A DNA stretch of 64,000 nt from Candidatus Fermentithermobacillaceae bacterium (lineage in GTDB: Bacteria > Bacillota > Sulfobacillia > Fermentithermobacillales > Fermentithermobacillaceae). A program made the position numbers and the translations under genes. The notes below the pieces were generated by a model that searched no databases, had not been told where the DNA came from, and worked only from the letters and a program-made list of their open reading frames with translations. This document shows positions 51,398 through 58,982 of the stretch, in pieces; the first letter of the stretch is position 1, and the number at the start of each line of letters is the position of its first letter. The stretch covers positions 10,518-74,517 of the forward strand of contig JAAZEL010000038.1 in the NCBI GenBank assembly GCA_012512325.1, written 5' to 3'.

Positions 51398-52219
51398 TCA
51401 CCCCTCCTCTCGGGTCGAAGGATACGGCATGGTCCGTGCCAGGGTTACGCATAAAACTTCGGCCGCTCCTGCGGATTTCAGGGCCCTGGCTGCTTCGTCA
51501 AGGGTGGCGCCTGTGGTGGCCACGTCATCTACCAGCAAGACTGAAACACCTGCCAGGCGGGAACCGCCTGACACACTCATGGTACCCCTTAAGTTGCGCC
51601 ACCTGTCACGGCGGCTCAGCCGGGCTTGAGAACCGCGAGCCTCCTCCCTTTCTAAAATATCGGCCAAGGGCACGCGAATATTAGACGACACCTCAGCAGC
51701 CAGGTCCTTAGCCTGGTTGTAGCCCCTGGCCTTAAGGCTTGATCTGGAAAGGGGCACGGGGACCACCAGCCCTACGGGGCTGAATTCGTGGCTGAGCTGC
51801 CTGGCCACCTGGCTGAGCAGCCGCCCCAAGGGCCTGGACAACCACCTCTCCCCTGAGTATTTCATCCGGCGAATGGCTGACATGAGCCGGCCCGTGTATA
51901 TGCCGGCTGAGCGCTGCACATCGAAATAATACATGTTGAGGCGGCAGTCATTGCACAACTCCAAAGGAGGGCGCAGGGGCATGCCGCACACTTTGCACAC
52001 CCAGGCCATTTGCTGCGCCAGCTGGGCGGTGCACTCGCTGCATATGCCGGTGAATATGCCGGCATCGCCTGCAACAGGGGCATTGCGCCCATGCTCCGAA
52101 AATGGATGGCCCCTCGGTATCGGGCTTCCGCTGGAAACCGGAGCGAAGCACAAAGGACAACGGGCAGGATCACCGTAAACCCAATGGGACAACTTGTCCA
52201 ATGCCTCAAGCCAGGCCAT
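51398..52219 (-). CDS. comFC: ComF family protein (ComFC-like phosphoribosyltransferase)
   Basis: 273 aa. N-terminal CPLC...C..C zinc finger and a C-terminal PRTase motif VLLVDDVATTGATL. Confidence 0.8.
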   Translation of the reverse strand: MAWLEALDKLSHWVYGDPARCPLCFAPVSSGSPIPRGHPFSEHGRNAPVAGDAGIFTGICSECTAQLAQQMAWVCKVCGMPLRPPLELCNDCRLNMYYFDVQRSAGIYTGRLMSAIRRMKYSGERWLSRPLGRLLSQVARQLSHEFSPVGLVVPVPLSRSSLKARGYNQAKDLAAEVSSNIRVPLADILEREEARGSQARLSRRDRWRNLRGTMSVSGGSRLAGVSVLLVDDVATTGATLDEAARALKSAGAAEVLCVTLARTMPYPSTREEG

Positions 52220-52252
52220 AATACACCTCTCTACCCCTTTACAGCTGCGCGA

Positions 52253-52392
52253 GCCTTACGGGTGTGCCGGCCTTACGGGCGTGTCGTGTCGGGCCCTGCG
52301 GCGGTGCCGGGCCCCCCGGCTGTACCGGCCCCTATGGCTGTGTCGGACCCTGCGGCTGTGCTGGCCCCTACGGCTGTGTCGGACCCACGCAG
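52253..52392. repeat. 18-nt tandem repeat (SCCYNNGGCTGTGYYGGM), about 7 copies, upstream of comFC
   Basis: gccttacgggtgtgccgg / ...gccctgcggcggtgccgg / gccccccggctgtaccgg / cccctatggctgtgtcgg / accctgcggctgtgctgg / cccctacggctgtgtcgg / accc... All six frames stay open across it, which produces the spurious track ORFs. Confidence 0.65.
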
Positions 52393-52718
52393 GAACTCGG
52401 ATTGATGACGAAATCAGCTTCAGCTGAAAGGTGCGACGCGATGACCCCGTCATCGACAAGCTTCCTCACCACTGCGACACATTGATGGCTGCAGCCCCTG
52501 GCATCCACGGCAATCTCAAGGTCAACGCCGGCCAATTGCCACCCGAGCTTCAGGCAACGCACCAGAGGTTCAACAACTTCCTGGAGATCGGGACATCCGG
52601 TTAGGGATACGATGACTCTCACCGGACCAGAAGTAGGCTTCAGCACTGCACCTTCCAGTATTACCAGAATACACCAATAGGAGACGGACAACAAGAGCAG
52701 CTTGTTGACGTCGGCCAA
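52368..52718 (-). CDS. hypothetical Cys-containing small protein (116 aa)
   Basis: ORF only. Hydrophobic N-terminus. Cys in TGCPD...RC...GCSHQC. No family recognised, and it is not ComFB-like. Confidence 0.4.
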   Translation of the reverse strand: MADVNKLLLLSVSYWCILVILEGAVLKPTSGPVRVIVSLTGCPDLQEVVEPLVRCLKLGWQLAGVDLEIAVDARGCSHQCVAVVRKLVDDGVIASHLSAEADFVINPSSCVGPTQP

Positions 52719-52798
52719 GAAACTTCCCCCTCAGCAATATATGCGTCGGGGGAAGCACATGGCAGTCAGAGCAGTTACCAACACAATCGTGAAAGCAG

Positions 52799-53986
52799 TT
52801 AAACGTACTTCAGGATATCATCCTTAAGGTCTAACCGCTCCCACGGAAGGTCCAAATCTTCCCTTCCGAAGTGGCCGTAACATGATACCTGCGAGTATAT
52901 GGGCCTCCGCAGGTCGAACCGTTCGATAATGGCCCCCGGCCTGAAATCGAAGGTTTTCTTCACAACCTCCAGAATGGCTTCATCAGGCACTTGTGCCGTG
53001 CCCTTGGTGTCAACGGTGATTGAAACAGGTTGCGCCACTCCTATTACATACGCCACTTGGACCTCGCATTCACGGGCCAAGCCTGCAGCCACCACATTCT
53101 TGGCTGCGTAACGGGCGGCGTAACTCCCTGAGCGGTCAACCTTAGTGGGGTCTTTTCCTGAGAAACTCCCGCCTCCGTGCCTGGCAAATCCTCCGTAAGT
53201 GTCTACGATGATCTTGCGTCCTGAGAGCCCGCTGTCCCCTTGAGGGCCTCCTACCACAAACCTTCCGGTGGCGTTGACCAGTATGCGGGTATCGTCATCC
53301 ATGAGATCCGCCGGAATGGTCTCCCTTATTACATGCTCAACAATGTCTTCGCGTATTTTGGAAAGGGCAACTTCGCTCGCATGTTGTGCGGAGACCACCA
53401 CGGTATGTACTCTTACGGGCTGGCTGTCGTAGTATTCTACGGTAACTTGAGTCTTCCCGTCAGGCCTGAGGTAAGGCAGAATCTTCTCGTGCCGAACCTG
53501 AGACAGCCGTCTGGCCAAGCGGTGTGCCAGGTGAATGGAGATGGGCATGTACACATCGGTTTCGTCGCAGGCATAACCGAACATAAGGCCCTGGTCACCG
53601 GCACCCAAAGTCTCAGGCATTTCGCCCAGCTTGGACTCAAGGGAACGGTCTACGCCCAGAGCTATGTCAGGGGACTGGTCTTCGATTGCAGTGAGCACCG
53701 CGCATGTATCGGCGTCAAAACCGAATTTGGCCCGGGTATAACCGATGCGGCGCAAGGTGTCCCTGACGATATCCGGCATCTCCACGTAGCACTCGGTGGA
53801 TATCTCTCCTGCTACCAACACAAACCCTGTCTTGACGAGGCATTCACAGGCAACCCGCGCAACCTTGTCCTTCTCAAGGATCGCATCGAGGATGGCATCG
53901 ACAATCTGGTCGGCTACTTTATCCGGGTGGCCCTCAGTCACAGATTCTGAAGTGAACAGCTGTCTTCCTCTGCCCATCGTTGGCAT
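52799..53986 (-). CDS. metK: S-adenosylmethionine synthetase
   Basis: [23 protein letters not shown] and the rest of the MetK core. Start assigned to the ATG at 53986 (MPTMGRG...), GGAGGTG upstream. The track ORF starts at 54004. Confidence 0.9.
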
Positions 53987-54072
53987 AGCCAGGCACACCT
54001 CCACGGGGAGTAATGTCCGAATCTAACCAGGCTACAGGCTGGAGTGTTTAAATCATCTTAGCACTGGCTGAA

Positions 54073-54078
54073 ATTATA
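54073..54078 (-). promoter_or_regulatory. candidate -10 box (TATAAT) for metK
   Basis: Minus-strand gacTATAATttc lies about 90 nt upstream of the metK start. No convincing -35 box. No S-box (SAM-I) consensus in the about 75-nt leader. Confidence 0.3.
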
Positions 54079-54079
54079 G

Positions 54080-54706
54080 TCAAACGCCCAAGGCAAACAC
54101 AAAGACGGCAGCCGCTACCTCCCGGCCTGCTACGAATGCCTTTCCCCGTGCCCTGCATACGTTCATGCGCAAAGGTTCGACCTCCACTTCAGCGCGCAGG
54201 GTGTCACCGGGCTTCACCGGCTGCTTGAACCGGGCGTTTTCAATCGCAGCCAGATAGGCCGGCTTGCCCCTGCGGCCCGGTTCGGACAGGACGGCCAAAG
54301 CAGCGGTCTGCGCCATCATCTCCAGGGTAATCACGCCGGGGAACACAGGCTCCTGGGGGAAATGCCCCCGGAAGAGCACATGATCTCTGGGGACATCGTA
54401 TTCAGCCACAGCCCATCGGCCCTGCTGTATGCTTATTGCGCGGGTCACAAACAGAAAGGGCGGCCGGTGCGGGAGGATGTCCGTGATAGGGGTAAGGCTT
54501 TCGCATCCGTTAGCCAGGTCAGGAGGCTTCGTACTATCGTGGCACGGATGACTCGTGGTATCCCGGCATGGAGGGTTCGCCTTATCGTCGCACGGATGGT
54601 TCGTGCCGTCCCGGCATCGATGGTTCGTGTTATCTTTTCGAGGAGGGTTGGCATTATCGTGGAATGGAAGGTTCATATTATCACGGCATCGGGCTTTCCT
54701 GTCCAT
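54080..54706 (-). CDS. fabZ: 3-hydroxyacyl-[ACP] dehydratase FabZ, possibly with a repeat-containing N-terminal extension
   Basis: The C-terminal about 145 aa are FabZ (ILPHRPPFLFV...HFPQEPVFPGVITLEMMAQT...). No in-frame ATG directly precedes the hot-dog domain. The nearest credible start is the ATG at 54706 (MDRKARCRDN..., GGGAG 9 nt upstream), which gives about 60 aa of octapeptide repeats. The track ORF to 54982 overlaps the flgJ-like gene. Confidence 0.65.
   Translation of the reverse strand: MDRKARCRDNMNLPFHDNANPPRKDNTNHRCRDGTNHPCDDKANPPCRDTTSHPCHDSTKPPDLANGCESLTPITDILPHRPPFLFVTRAISIQQGRWAVAEYDVPRDHVLFRGHFPQEPVFPGVITLEMMAQTAALAVLSEPGRRGKPAYLAAIENARFKQPVKPGDTLRAEVEVEPLRMNVCRARGKAFVAGREVAAAVFVFALGV
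54526..54693. repeat. 24-nt tandem repeat, 7 copies (GGTTCGTGNTATCNNGGCANSGAN)
   Basis: Units at 54526, 54550, 54574, 54598, 54622, 54646 and 54670. Spans the fabZ 5' region and the last codons of the flgJ-like gene. On the minus strand it encodes about 7 times an 8-aa T-N-H-P-C-R-D-x unit. Confidence 0.7.
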
Positions 54707-55001
54707 CCTCATCATCTCCCGGCAAGTCGCTGGGAGATGATTTCGACAGTTGGTCATAAAGCACCTTCGCCAGGCCGATTCCTCCTCCTTGGGCCCACAC
54801 CTGTCCCATGGATTGGGACATGAGCACGTCCCATGGCCCAAGGTCCACGCCTGCATTCTTGGCCATGTTGCGCCACAGGATTGTGAGAAACAGGGACTCA
54901 AATTCACGGCAAGCTTCAGCCAGTTTGAGATCTTGCTTATCCTGGTTTGAACCTGCAACTCTGGCCAAGCTGTAAGGTACAATGCTTATGTGGTTGTCCA
55001 T
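54681..55001 (-). CDS. flagellar rod-binding (FlgJ N-terminal-like, Rod_binding domain) protein
   Basis: 106 aa. ...LAEACREFESLFLTILWRNMAKNAG...GGGIGLAKVLYDQL matches the rod-binding domain pattern. Sits downstream of the rod genes. Confidence 0.6.
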   Translation of the reverse strand: MDNHISIVPYSLARVAGSNQDKQDLKLAEACREFESLFLTILWRNMAKNAGVDLGPWDVLMSQSMGQVWAQGGGIGLAKVLYDQLSKSSPSDLPGDDEDGQESPMP

Positions 55002-55189
55002 ATGTCATGTCCCTTCCGCATCGATTCCGTATGAACAATCAGAGCCTCATTACTCATTGTCCGCATCGGCCATCTCATTATCCTCTCATTGTCCTCATCA
55101 GCTATCTCATTACCCTCATCAGTCTCATTGCTTTGTCTTCATAGGCATCTCATGGTCCTGCATTCGATCCCGACGTGGAATTGTGAGGT

Positions 55190-55951
55190 TTAGCGCCTTA
55201 TACTGTTTGCAATGGCCCACATCTGATCGGCTGTCTCCACCGACTTGGAGTTAAGCTCAAAAGCCCGCTGGGCGATAATCAGGTTCACCATCTCAGACAC
55301 GATTTCTACGTTGGATTTCTCTATGTAACCTGACAAGATAGTGCCCGAACCCTGCTGGCCGGGCTGCACTTCAATCCCTTGCCCCGACTGAGGGGTCTCT
55401 CTGTACAGATTCGAACCTATTGCGTGCAAGCCTGCGGGATTAGGGAACATGGTAATCACAATTTGCCCAAACTCCTCGAAAGCGCCGCCTATCCTGGCCC
55501 GGATTACGCCTTCCTCATCTATGCTTATCTCCTCGGCCTCGGGGGGAATCCTGCTTCCGTTTCTCAACCTCACGAGATGGCCGTTGGCAGTCACCAACCT
55601 GCCCTGGCTGTCCAGCCTGAACGAACCGTCCCGGGTGTAATAGTCGTTGCCGTCAGGACCGGCTATGGTGAAGAAGCCCTGGCCCTGAATAGCCAGGAAC
55701 AGGGGATCGTCCGCCGGCTCAAGAGCGCCCTGCCCGAAGTCCCTGTAGGTGCCTGCCACACGCACCCCGCTTCCTACCGAAGCCAGACTGTTCCTGCCCA
55801 CCAGGATGTTCTGATAGTAGAGGTCCTGGAAGTCCACCCGCTGTCTCTTGAAGCCCAGAGTGCTCACGTTAGCAAGGTTATTGGAGATGTTGTCTATGTT
55901 GAACTGCTGGGCCGTCATGCCCGTCGCACCGGACCACAGAGCTCTTATCAT
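55190..55951 (-). CDS. flgG: flagellar basal-body rod protein FlgG (FlhP-like)
   Basis: 253 aa. N-terminal ...GMTAQQFNIDNISNNLANVSTLGFKRQ and a C-terminal rod domain ...NVEIVSEMVNLIIAQRAFELNSK. Confidence 0.85.
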   Translation of the reverse strand: MIRALWSGATGMTAQQFNIDNISNNLANVSTLGFKRQRVDFQDLYYQNILVGRNSLASVGSGVRVAGTYRDFGQGALEPADDPLFLAIQGQGFFTIAGPDGNDYYTRDGSFRLDSQGRLVTANGHLVRLRNGSRIPPEAEEISIDEEGVIRARIGGAFEEFGQIVITMFPNPAGLHAIGSNLYRETPQSGQGIEVQPGQQGSGTILSGYIEKSNVEIVSEMVNLIIAQRAFELNSKSVETADQMWAIANSIRR

Positions 55952-55976
55952 TCCGGTCTACCTCCCTCATCTACAC

Positions 55977-56150
55977 GCTTCCTATTTTTGCATGCTGCCT
56001 ATTCCTGCGCGCTTCCTGTTTCAGGCTAGCTTCCTATTTTTGCACGCTTCCCGTTTCCTGCTAGCTTCCTATTCTTGCACGCTTCCCGTTTCCTGCTAGC
56101 TTCCTATTCTTGCATGCTTCCTGGTTCTGCACGCTTCCTGTTCCTGCCGG
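55977..56150. repeat. about 36-nt tandem repeat (gcttcctattcttgcacgcttcccgtttcctgctag), about 4-5 copies, upstream of flgG
   Basis: Copies at about 55977 (degenerate), 56029, 56065 and 56101. The minus (mRNA-sense) strand is rich in GGAAG/AGGAA motifs. Confidence 0.65.
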
Positions 56151-56206
56151 TTCCCGCCCCTACATGCTCCATATTCCTGCACGACTCCTGGAAGGCTGCT
56201 CCGCAA

Positions 56207-56944
56207 CTACACTCTTCCAACCCGGTTCACAGCTTGCTCCAGGGTCTCATCGTGGGAACGCAATGCCCGCTGGGCAGCTTCGTATACCCTCATTGATGTA
56301 ATGAGGGCTACCATTTCAGACACAGGGTCCACCGTGGACTTCTCAAGCACCCCCACCAGCACCCTGGGAGACTCAATCTGGGTGGCGTATCCTCCGATCA
56401 GCCTAAGAAGGCCGTTACCCTCTTTCTCCAACTCATAGTCTCCTGAAAACGAGAAAACCGACAGGCTGTCCACCGTTTCATCGTCAGCGACTACGCTCCC
56501 GTCGTCGGAAATGCTGTAGACCTTGCCTGCCTCAAGGGCAATGGGGCCGCTTGTGCCCAACACCCTGTATCCGCCCACTGTGAGGCAACCGTCCATGTCC
56601 CTGAGGTTGCCCATACGCGTGTACCTGGTGCCTGCAGGAGTCTCAACGGCCAAGTAGGTACCCTGGGGCAAGGCAATGTCCAAAGGCCTGTGGGTGGTCT
56701 CAAGCCCGCCTACAAGGTCCATGGTGGCAATATCGTGAAGTACCGTTCCGCTGGAAAAACCTCCGATGGCTGTGTGGGACAGGCTCTCGAACCTGTACAT
56801 CAGCGCATCGTGGAAGCTCTGAAACACCACTTTGTCCTTTTGATACGCTACGGTGTCCACATTGGCCAGGTTGTTGGCGATCACTTCCTGGTTGAGCACC
56901 TGAGCCCTCATGGCCGTAGCGGCAGACAGAATGCCTTTGATCAA
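56207..56944 (-). CDS. flgF: flagellar basal-body rod protein FlgF (FlhO-like)
   Basis: 245 aa. ...AQVLNQEVIANNLANVDTVAYQKDK... and C-terminal ...DPVSEMVALITSMRVYEAAQRAL. Confidence 0.8.
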   Translation of the reverse strand: MIKGILSAATAMRAQVLNQEVIANNLANVDTVAYQKDKVVFQSFHDALMYRFESLSHTAIGGFSSGTVLHDIATMDLVGGLETTHRPLDIALPQGTYLAVETPAGTRYTRMGNLRDMDGCLTVGGYRVLGTSGPIALEAGKVYSISDDGSVVADDETVDSLSVFSFSGDYELEKEGNGLLRLIGGYATQIESPRVLVGVLEKSTVDPVSEMVALITSMRVYEAAQRALRSHDETLEQAVNRVGRV

Positions 56945-57049
56945 GTAAAAATCCCCCTTGAAGTTTTATCGGCCAAGGGCTCAAACGTATTAGGTGTCTG
57001 AGGAGGAAATGGTTTATTGCAAACAGACCCAGCACCCAATGGTCAGAGT

Positions 57050-57230
57050 CAGACCATCCATCGTGGCGATCTGGATATTTCGGGCAAGGTAGTCGTTACC
57101 CTGCAAAGGCCTTCGCAGCTCAGGCCATACATCGTGGCAATCTGAACATTTTCGGGCAAGGTAGTCGTGACTCTACGGTAGCCTTCGCAACTTAGACCAT
57201 ACATCGCGGTAATGCGGTAATCCGGTCATT
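57050..57230. repeat. about 71-nt direct repeat, about 2.4 copies (atcgtggcRatctgRayatttYcgggcaaggtagtcgt...ccttcgca...cat)
   Basis: Copy starts at about 57060, 57131 and 57203 (partial), read from the sequence. Confidence 0.65.
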
Positions 57231-57431
57231 TCCGGACCGGTATAGGACCGGGTCTGTGGGGGCTAATCTGAGACCGGTTTTGGTACTGCACCGGCCAAGA
57301 GGCTACCGGATGTTGCAGGAGACCGGCCAATCCCAGACCAGGTTCCGACCAAATCCTGACACTCCGGTCGATCTCAAACCAGCTTGGCTCTCGAGTTGGT
57401 CAGAAGCAGGCCAGCCGCGCCGTAGAATGGC

Positions 57432-57950
57432 CAATTCCAGACCAGATCGGGGACCGGATCCGAGCACTCTGGCCAATCTCTGACCAGTCCGACTCCCGAA
57501 GTGGTCAGAATGGAACCAGATGTCGCCGTGATCTGGTCAATTCGAGACCAGACCATTGACCGGATCCGAGCACTCTGGCCAATTTCTGACCAGTCCGACT
57601 TCCGAAGTGGTCAGAATGAAGCCAGATGTCGCGGTGATCTGGTCAATTCGAGACCAGACCATCGACCGGATCCGAGCACTCCGGCCAATTTCTGACCAGT
57701 CCGACTTCCGAAGTGGTCAGAACGGAACCAAAAGGCGGGGCAACCTGGTCAATTCCTGGCCGGTCCCCGGTCAAACCGGAGAACTCTGGTCAATCTGAGA
57801 CCAGGCTCATCAGTTGAAGTGGTCAGATACAGACCAGGTTTCGCGCAAAGCCGGTCAATTCATAGCCAGACCCAAGACCGAAACCCAAGATCCTGGCCAA
57901 TTCCTAACCGGTTCCGATGCAGAAGTGGTCAAATCGAAGCCAGGCGAGGT
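57432..57950. repeat. about 96-106-nt tandem repeat, 3 near-identical copies (57432..57725), then degenerate copies to about 57950. Recurring words: ctggtcaattc, ggccaattt, gaagtggtcagaa
   Basis: The anchor ggatccgagcactc recurs at about 57466, 57562 and 57668. ccagatgtcgcSgtgatctggtcaattcgagaccagacc recurs at about 57516 and 57622. No ORF longer than 80 codons on either strand. Confidence 0.7.
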
Positions 57951-58982
57951 CTAACCGGTGAGACTTTCGATGTGCTCCCTGTAGAGGTTAAAGTTCTCCA
58001 AGGCCGCGATGGTACCTCTTGCCACACACGAAATGGGGTCTTCAGCCACATGGACCGGCAAGCCGGTTGCATCCCTTATAAGCTGGGTTATGCCTTTCAG
58101 AAGGGCTCCGCCTCCTGTAAGCACGATGCCTTTATCGATGATGTCGCCCAACAGCTCAGGTGGGGTGCGGTCCAATACCTGCCTTATGGCGTGACAGATC
58201 AAATCGAGGGGTTCCCTCAGGGCGACCCTTATGTCTGCGGAACTCACTGACACGCTCCTGGGAAGTCCTGTAATGGCGTCCCTGCCCCTGACCTCATACC
58301 TGGTTTCTTCGTTTGCTTCAGGGTGGGCCGACCCTACTGCTATCTTTACTTCCTCCGCAGTGGATTCGCCAATGAAAAGGGTGTATTCCCTGCGCATATG
58401 TCTTATGATGGCCTCGTCGAACGCATTGCCGCCCACGCGGGTGGAGGCGCCTGTGACTATCCCGTTGAGGGAAAGCACGGCGATGTCAGTGGTTCCTCCT
58501 CCGATGTCCACAACCATATGGCCTTTAGGAGCAGTGATGTCTATACCCGCCCCCAGAGCAGCGGCGAGAGGTTCTTCAATGAGGTATACCTTCTTACCTC
58601 CTGCTGCCAGCCCTGCTTGGAGCACCGCCCTCCGTTCCACTGAAGTAACCGCAGCAGGTACACATAAGAGGAGTGTGGGCTTAAACACCAAGGTTGAACC
58701 GAGGCTCTTGCGCAAGAAGTACCTGAGCATTATCTCAGTGACCTCGAAATCATTGATCACGCCCTCCACCAGAGGGCTTACGGTCACAATGCTTCCAGGC
58801 GTCCTGCCGACCATTCTCCTGGCCTCTGTGCCTACCGCCAAAACCTCTTTGGTTTCGACATGCCTGGCTATCACTGAAGGCTCTCTTAGGACGATGCCTT
58901 TGCCTGATACGAACACCAAGACGGAGGAAGTTCCGAGGTCAATTCCTACATTCCGGCCACCTATCACGCTAAGCCACCCCAC
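57951..58982 (-). CDS. mbl: rod shape-determining actin homologue, MreB/Mbl family
   Basis: 343 aa. ...NVGIDLGTSSVLVF..., DIGGGTTD and other actin-fold motifs. Adjacent to spoIIID as mbl is in B. subtilis. Confidence 0.9.
   Translation of the reverse strand: MGWLSVIGGRNVGIDLGTSSVLVFVSGKGIVLREPSVIARHVETKEVLAVGTEARRMVGRTPGSIVTVSPLVEGVINDFEVTEIMLRYFLRKSLGSTLVFKPTLLLCVPAAVTSVERRAVLQAGLAAGGKKVYLIEEPLAAALGAGIDITAPKGHMVVDIGGGTTDIAVLSLNGIVTGASTRVGGNAFDEAIIRHMRREYTLFIGESTAEEVKIAVGSAHPEANEETRYEVRGRDAITGLPRSVSVSSADIRVALREPLDLICHAIRQVLDRTPPELLGDIIDKGIVLTGGGALLKGITQLIRDATGLPVHVAEDPISCVARGTIAALENFNLYREHIESLTG

Follow-up and report, generated by a model that had tools for sequence, protein, structure and literature searches.

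This study concerns a gene for the dehydratase FabZ, and a tandem array of 24-nucleotide (nt) units at its 5′ end, in a 64,000-nt stretch of DNA from an uncultured thermophilic member of the Bacillota (Candidatus Fermentithermobacillaceae bacterium, contig JAAZEL010000038.1; the whole stretch is called the window below). The gene lies between metK and a gene for a rod-binding protein, downstream of flgF- and flgG-like genes and of an mbl/mreB-like gene (Table 1). This arrangement beside flagellar rod genes and mbl presumably corresponds to the mbl-flhO-flhP-fabZ order of B. subtilis. The enzyme is a known one; the new part, as read from the sequence, would be an N-terminal tail amplified in frame.

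The rod-binding gene and fabZ overlap. The final 26 nt of the former overlap the fabZ start and the first repeat unit (unit 0, or U0), which contains the rod-binding TGA (54683-54681), and the extra units start directly after this TGA. The fabZ frame is open from 54982; above the cluster of ATG codons it merely overlaps the rod-binding gene. Between ATG 54676 and GTG 54448 it contains no ATG, GTG or TTG codon. A first-pass annotation, made from the sequence alone, had proposed most of this layout. Its placing of the array across the stop region of a flgJ-like gene, the lack of any ATG between the repeats and the FabZ domain, and the choice of ATG 54706 with a GGGAG Shine-Dalgarno sequence as best start all hold, the start being more exactly the ATG cluster 54715-54706. 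The codon layout from ATG 54706 likewise bears out the translation that it gave for the repeats, and no frameshift was found upstream of the ILPHRPPF segment. The open frame upstream of the domain had been put at about 200 codons and measures about 165. Seven 24-nt repeats had been counted; the array is where it was said to be, and it comprises eight units, seven of them extra relative to related genomes.

Table 1. Positions of the genes and sequence features discussed in the text (window coordinates).
Feature	Position	Strand	Remarks
mbl/mreB-like gene	58982-57951	minus	
flgF-like gene	56944-56207	minus	
flgG-like gene	55951-55190	minus	
Rod-binding gene	55001-54681	minus	FlgJ N-terminal-like, 106 amino acids; upstream of fabZ
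Shine-Dalgarno-like GGGAG	54716..54720	minus	9 nt before ATG 54706; part of GGGAGATGATG
Cluster of three in-frame ATGs	54704..54715	minus	54715, 54712 and 54706; orthologues are called from the third
fabZ coding sequence from the orthologous ATG	54080..54706	minus	208 amino acids plus stop; cluster members P0001, P0124, P0127
Eight in-frame 24-nt units, U0-U7	54512..54703	minus	no indels; seven (168 nt) extra relative to nearest relatives
ATG 54676 (MNLPFHD...)	54674..54676	minus	no canonical in-frame start lies between it and the hot-dog domain; 2 nt past the rod-binding gene TGA
Conserved leader end, NGCESLTPITDILPHRPPF	54455..54511	minus	just downstream of the array; purifying selection as protein
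FabZ hot-dog domain	54092..54490	minus	residues 73-205 of 208; catalytic His of GHFP, Glu of LEMMAQ
metK	54004-52799	minus	

In the fabZ frame units U0 to U7 read DRKARCRD, NMNLPFHD, NANPPRKD, NTNHRCRD, GTNHPCDD, KANPPCRD, TTSHPCHD and STKPPDLA. They contain neither indels nor stops and are 37-79% identical to one another; proline at unit position 5 is retained through CCA, CCT and CCG codons. Tandem Repeats Finder detects a periodicity of 24 and 48 nt at 54528-54634, and a repeat search recovers six 58-nt copies in register, spaced by exactly 24 nt, over 54521-54698. Self-identity at a lag of 24 nt is 0.583, versus 0.261 ± 0.033 in dinucleotide-preserving shuffles, none of 2000 reaching the observed value. 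The array is confirmed as real and beyond chance.

Other kinds of element were considered and set aside. No unit of the array recurs elsewhere in the 64 kb, as a dispersed repeat or mobile element would, and the motif HPC[RHD]D has one partial, chance match in the rest of the window. The array is not a structured RNA by the measures applied: its fold has a z score of +0.59, with 148 of 200 shuffles folding at least as well, and the interval 52000-58200 has no Rfam match at E values up to 1. Open reading frames (ORFs) in antisense or alternative frames across the array (54362-54823, plus strand; 54445-54654, minus strand) were rejected; they lack homologues, overlap two conserved genes, and have ratios of nonsynonymous to synonymous differences per site (pN/pS) of 1.28-1.95. 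A search of the literature on Fermentithermobacillaceae and on N-terminal extensions of FabZ returned nothing on this array.

Residues 73-205 of the product score 128.6 bits against the NCBIfam FabZ model NF000582 (cutoff 113) and match Pfam PF07977 with an E value of 1.8e-22; the TIGR01750 score of 117.4 falls under that model's stricter cutoff of 155. His115 and Glu129 are invariant in a 65-sequence alignment, and the sequence matches the solved E. coli FabZ structure 6n3p (E 2.9e-27). In an AlphaFold2 model the predicted local distance difference test (pLDDT) score exceeds 90 from about residue 70 onward, whereas residues 1-63 score 46-56 and show no secondary structure. The top 50 Protein Data Bank hits of a Foldseek search with the model are all FabZ, the best being 9a6k_B, the B. 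subtilis enzyme (template modelling score 0.93, root-mean-square deviation 0.9 Å). The product is thus predicted to be a canonical FabZ dehydratase preceded by about 68 N-terminal residues that form an unstructured tail. It shares with bacterial FabZ the same hot-dog domain, the GHFP histidine, the LEMMAQ glutamate and LPHRPPF, and differs in what precedes the start of the family profile: about 12 residues in canonical FabZ, 23-30 in the close clade and about 68 here.

Among the best 120 database hits none is longer than 170 amino acids apart from LpxC-FabZ fusions. These fusions (NF009667), like the apicoplast-targeted FabZ of Plasmodium and Toxoplasma (PMC8438308), indicate that FabZ tolerates large N-terminal additions there too. 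The additions in those cases are a folded enzyme domain or a targeting peptide, whereas that of the window is an internal tandem amplification. The tail itself, of which NTNHRCRDGTNHPCDDK is a part and an example source of tail-derived peptides, resembles no known family. A Pfam scan of the 76-residue leader at E values up to 10 gave no family, and a word-index search of 5.8 billion proteins produced no candidate homologue. Against 1.84 billion representative sequences phmmer returned nine hits, all long eukaryote-like proteins with octapeptide arrays of their own (ITDTPLQD, SNNIPIED, SSRAPCQD and others); these were judged low-complexity sequences of periodic and compositional resemblance and not accepted as homologues.

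The origin of the tail emerges from comparison with related genomes. The order flgF-flgG-rod-binding gene-fabZ-metK is kept in four of them, with FabZ identities to the window of 77% (L141/L142), 73% (L143), 66% (L001) and 71% (L002, Ca. Fermentithermobacillaceae DTU015), and the overlap between fabZ and the rod-binding gene recurs in L141, L001 and L002. GGGAGATGATGnnnATG is the conserved start site shared by the orthologues in L141, L143, L001 and L002. The start context GGGAGATGATG..ATG is kept in three of the four, L141 having AGGAGATGATG (AGGAG). From the first ATG through ...PPF, the leader spans 31 codons in L141 (MMPM-DKNPGSRD-NTCEGLRRITDILPHRPPF) and in L143 (MMRM-DRTPDCPN-PKCEGPKAVTDILPHRPPF), 38 in L001 and 36 in L002. 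In the window it consists of MMRM, the eight units and the conserved leader end, 87 codons in all, which is exactly 31 + 7 × 8. The repeated unit is therefore the eight-codon stretch that follows FabZ's own start, present once in the relatives (possibly twice in L001) and eight times here. The orthologues HHX09944.1, HHT85205.1 and that of LFST01000046 (DTU015) are like the window in operon and overlapping start, and follow the same leader logic, M-D/N-K-N-P-G-C/S-R-D and then NxCE..ITDILPHRPPF; they differ in their neighbouring intergenic gaps, which measure 20-126 nt versus 188-1006 nt in the window. The ancestral unit (KNPGCRD or DKNPGSRD) has no histidine, this residue being a novelty of the window species, and two of the window's units, NMNLPFHD and NANPPRKD, lack cysteine.

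These comparisons alter one part of the first-pass annotation and sustain another. It had described FabZ as fused to a separate segment; what is found instead is a sevenfold in-frame amplification of the eight codons following FabZ's start, and the alignment with related species that it had suggested reveals a single unit there and no repeat extension (with the reservation just made for L001). That the array belongs to the FabZ reading frame is upheld by the orthologous start, by the constraint on the codons after the array (see below) and by the lack of a canonical start further downstream. Nor do the orthologues begin at the hot-dog domain with a non-ATG codon; they use the upstream ATG.

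Thirteen further loci of the same species were collected from independent assemblies (ENA, NCBI, Logan and JGI) that stem from several studies, contigs of 638 kb and 838 kb among them. Their identity to the window is 99.7-100%, and the fabZ array is free of indels in every one. A 321-nt block comprising the Shine-Dalgarno sequence, the array and ILPHRPPF is exact in 12 of the 13. An identical array in so many independent assemblies rules out both an assembly artefact and a variable locus, and no copy-number polymorphism or phase variation was detected for the fabZ array across the 13. The remaining locus, L061 (LSQX01242832.1), carries two single-nucleotide polymorphisms (SNPs) 11 nt apart and outside the array, at 54715 and 54704. 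They turn the first and third of the clustered ATGs, the third being the orthologous one, into CTG and ATC, alter two residues in the tail of the rod-binding protein, and are the sole differences in 2.5 kb. A nearby intergenic array of 35-nt units differs by one unit in L140, a genome in which the fabZ array is unchanged. We conclude that the array exists and is fixed in this species, where it shows no contingency-locus behaviour; no other species was found to carry it.

Tandem repeats just past a start codon are also a feature of the contingency loci and variable-number tandem repeats that underlie phase-variable genes in Neisseria and Haemophilus. The fabZ array differs from these in having a unit that is a multiple of three, copies only 37-79% identical and a copy number constant in 13 assemblies. 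With a 24-nt unit (eight codons) and no copy-number variation, it cannot switch frame.

The fabZ leader is not alone in having expanded. Six tandem arrays lie within the same 5.6 kb, and five junctions are enlarged relative to L141 while the other gaps are unchanged. No unit of any of these arrays turns up again in the rest of the window. The increments are 924 nt between mbl and flgF (periods of 72 and 106 nt), 183 nt between flgF and flgG (17/35 nt), 168 nt between flgG and the rod-binding gene (11/21/32 nt), 168 nt in the fabZ leader (24 nt) and 113 nt between an ORF of 116 amino acids and a comF-like gene (18 nt). That two of these increments have the same length is probably a coincidence. 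The pattern points to a mutational origin, by local tandem duplication at weakly constrained junctions. Since non-coding junctions expanded in the same way, the cause of the fabZ array would be mutational rather than selective.

Whether the array is translated can be judged from the sequence that follows it. In comparisons with L141, L143 and L002, the 19 codons after the array have pS values of 0.73-0.91 and pN values of 0.14-0.22; the last 11 of them show six to eight synonymous differences and no more than one nonsynonymous difference. Such a synonymous bias indicates that the stretch is translated. The next canonical start below the array, GTG 54448, would remove the invariant LPHRPPF, and no Shine-Dalgarno-like sequence stands in front of the non-canonical candidates CTG 54517, ATC 54487 and ATC 54478. 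With the 19 codons under constraint and canonical in-frame starts present only at 54676 or above, we infer that the array is translated. The best-supported reading is that translation would begin at the ATG cluster, or at the latest at 54676, and run through at least six units.

The account we favour combines these elements. An eight-codon unit following the fabZ start (ancestrally D-[KR]-x-P-x-C-R-D) would have been amplified in frame to eight copies in one species, probably by slipped-strand events or unequal recombination, so that 56 codons came to be inserted between the conserved start and the NxCE..ITDILPHRPPF entry to the hot-dog domain. The amplification may have been part of a local burst of tandem duplication that also enlarged the four neighbouring junctions, the fabZ expansion being kept presumably because its length, a multiple of three, left the protein unbroken. 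Ribosomes starting at the ATG cluster (54715-54706), with ATG 54676 as the latest possible start, would read through the array and produce a tail in which Asn, Asp, Pro, Cys, His and Arg abound. We think it likely that this tail is translated, disordered and largely neutral.

Several observations weigh against this account. Prodigal-based pipelines call only a fragment of 109 amino acids (from GTG 54409) or one of 88 amino acids on more than 30 contigs, calls that reveal how poor the coding statistics of the array are. Openness of the frame is weak evidence of coding, since three of the six frames run through the array without a stop. The pN/pS among units, 0.50 in the fabZ frame and the lowest of the six (0.64-1.95 in the others), is a weak indication as well, being based on eight codons in six non-independent units, a tiny sample. 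The exact start of fabZ is not fixed, the orthologous ATG having been removed by the SNPs of L061. A σ70-like element, TGGACA-17-GATAAT, occupies 54705-54677; if it were used, the mRNA would begin below every ATG. Finally, to call the tail a neutral appendage is to take a default position, and the even intervals at which Cys, His and Asp recur may yet be of importance.

The σ70-like element is central to a reading in which the array is an untranslated 5′ leader, transcription starting from 54705-54677 and translation from a non-canonical codon (CTG 54517, or ATC 54487 or 54478). The element agrees with the consensus at 10 of 12 positions and the motif is also found in L141; the avoidance of the array by gene callers and the loss of the orthologous ATG from L061 would fit as well. 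Yet the number of promoter-like sites, two, is what shuffles predict by chance (1.6), and on this count the site was kept as a weak rival only. In L141 the motif would leave no usable start, and it is absent from L143 and L002. None of the non-canonical codons is preceded by a Shine-Dalgarno-like sequence, and the CTG lies just two codons ahead of NGCES..., a segment directly following the array whose protein sequence is conserved. The upstream ATG serves as the start in every orthologue, and the array has neither RNA structure nor an Rfam family. An untranslated leader is, on balance, quite improbable.

The fragment calls raise the further question of whether fabZ is disabled, yielding a truncated product from GTG 54409 or 54448 or decaying as a pseudogene replaced by another dehydratase. 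We find this hardly credible. A start at either GTG would lose the invariant LPHRPPF strand, whose codons have changed only synonymously relative to the relatives; the complete reading frame is unbroken and the same in 12 assemblies; both catalytic residues, His and Glu, are present; and the domain is modelled with confidence. The 109- and 88-residue calls, whose starts fall within the hot-dog domain, are almost certainly erroneous, and the poor coding statistics of the repeat appear to be the cause. Public calls of fabZ disagree more widely, at 88, 109, 198, 208 and 225 amino acids (same-species contigs L050-L059; proteins P0121-P0128). NCBI entries alone start at ATG 54676 (198 amino acids, NLC15338.1) or at ATG 54757 (225 amino acids, MGI6620842.1); the former, annotated as FabZ of Candidatus Fermentithermobacillaceae bacterium, matches the window product from ATG 54676 at 100% identity. 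The locus is thus a gene-calling trap, and methods that call start codons across repeats could usefully be tried on it.

If the tail is translated, it may have been selected for metal binding or redox sensing, with H-P-C-x-D ligand clusters every eight residues modulating the activity, stability or localisation of FabZ. Of the 70 residues of the leader, 10 are Asp, 9 Asn, 9 Pro, 7 Arg, 6 Cys and 5 His. Cys, Asp and Pro each have a set place within the unit, the units compared with one another give a pN/pS below 1, the leaders of close relatives hold one to three Cys, and the array is fixed and identical across strains. On the other side, the tail belongs to no Pfam family, has no word-sharing homologue in the proteins searched and only unrelated HMMER hits, and is structureless in the AlphaFold2 model. 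Its ancestral unit had no His, two of its units have no Cys, it is limited to one species, and neighbouring non-coding junctions expanded likewise. We consider a selected function of this sort unlikely. A slightly longer shot still is the idea that a newly evolved metal- or redox-responsive tail (H-P-C-x-D) ties FabZ, and membrane lipid synthesis, to the metal or redox status of a thermophilic anaerobe.

Short periodic or low-complexity segments rich in metal ligands are found in the tails of Hpn, HypB, SlyD and UreE and in the PHGGGWGQ octarepeat of the prion protein, the eight-residue period of the latter being like that of the array. There is no homology between these and the array, which has a much lower ligand density, offering at most one Cys and one His per eight residues, and, unlike His/Cys-rich metal-binding tails, has neither CxxC motifs nor runs of His. 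The metal-binding role that the first-pass annotation saw in the repeat is read from composition and is speculation; we infer that the enzyme tolerates the tail, and that the tail is not a module devoted to binding metal.

A translated tail of the kind we favour would be a clean and datable case of a housekeeping enzyme gaining a disordered, ligand-rich extension by tandem amplification of its own first codons, sister genomes keeping the ancestral single-unit state. The known chemistry of FabZ is unchanged by the tail; the curiosity is real and probably modest. The five junction expansions, within about 6 kb of one operon and in one species only, hint at a local duplication process.

The other expanded junctions have features of their own. 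The mbl-flgF gap measures 1006 nt versus about 80-135 nt in relatives and holds two minus-strand arrays, of 106-nt units (3.1 copies, 57428-57827) and 72-nt units (2.3 copies, 57049-57213). Two strong hairpins are predicted in each 106-nt unit, CUGACCA...UGGUCAG and GGUCUGGUC...GACCAGAUC. The RNA fold as a whole has a z score of -5.3, none of 100 shuffles being as stable, and no Rfam family matches.

Just upstream of flgF a conserved CTAATACGTTTG-N-GCCGATAA element is present at about 56955-57000 (minus strand), with counterparts at 1960-2000 in L001 and 2055-2100 in L002. We take this element to resemble the σD (FliA) promoter consensus of B. subtilis. If it is such a promoter, flgF, flgG, the rod-binding gene and fabZ could be co-transcribed from it; no convincing separate promoter for fabZ was found. 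On a broader reading that we consider unlikely, the whole set of tandem arrays in this σD-type flagellar-fabZ operon would be regulatory, the sense-strand spacer before flgG included.

The flgF-flgG spacer (55952-56206, array at 55970-56156) is 255 nt long, versus 41-126 nt in relatives, and is built of 17-, 35- and 70-nt units, with one extra 35-nt unit in L140. Its sense strand is 72% purine and repeats GGAAGC every 17-18 nt, with nine exact copies. GGA motifs number 20, versus 12.3 ± 2.6 expected, and the RNA fold z score is only -1.8. The genes fliW and csrA lie about 7 kb downstream, so that a leader that binds or titrates CsrA is a possible lead.

The gap between flgG and the rod-binding gene (55002-55189, array at 55053-55159) measures 188 nt versus 20-49 nt in relatives. 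It has 11/21/32-nt AATGAG(A/G) repeats on the sense strand, with many short ATG...stop mini-frames; its fold is not stable (z +0.51). At the 3′ end of the 116-residue ORF (52718-52368), an array of 5.6 copies of an 18-nt unit (52286-52386, minus strand) reaches into the spacer that precedes the comF-like gene. Read with the ORF, in frame, it gives GPTQP*, GPAQPQ, GPTQP*, GPVQPG and GPAPPQ, with two in-frame TAG codons, the period again being a multiple of three. L141 has a 35-nt spacer and no array at this junction.

Many Bacillota carry an S-adenosylmethionine (SAM) riboswitch upstream of metK. In the window, the interval upstream of this gene (54004-54090) contains no SAM (S-box) riboswitch or other Rfam family at E values up to 1; it contains only a σ70-like sequence, TTGACT-17-TAAGAT with a TG extension, at 54083-54055.

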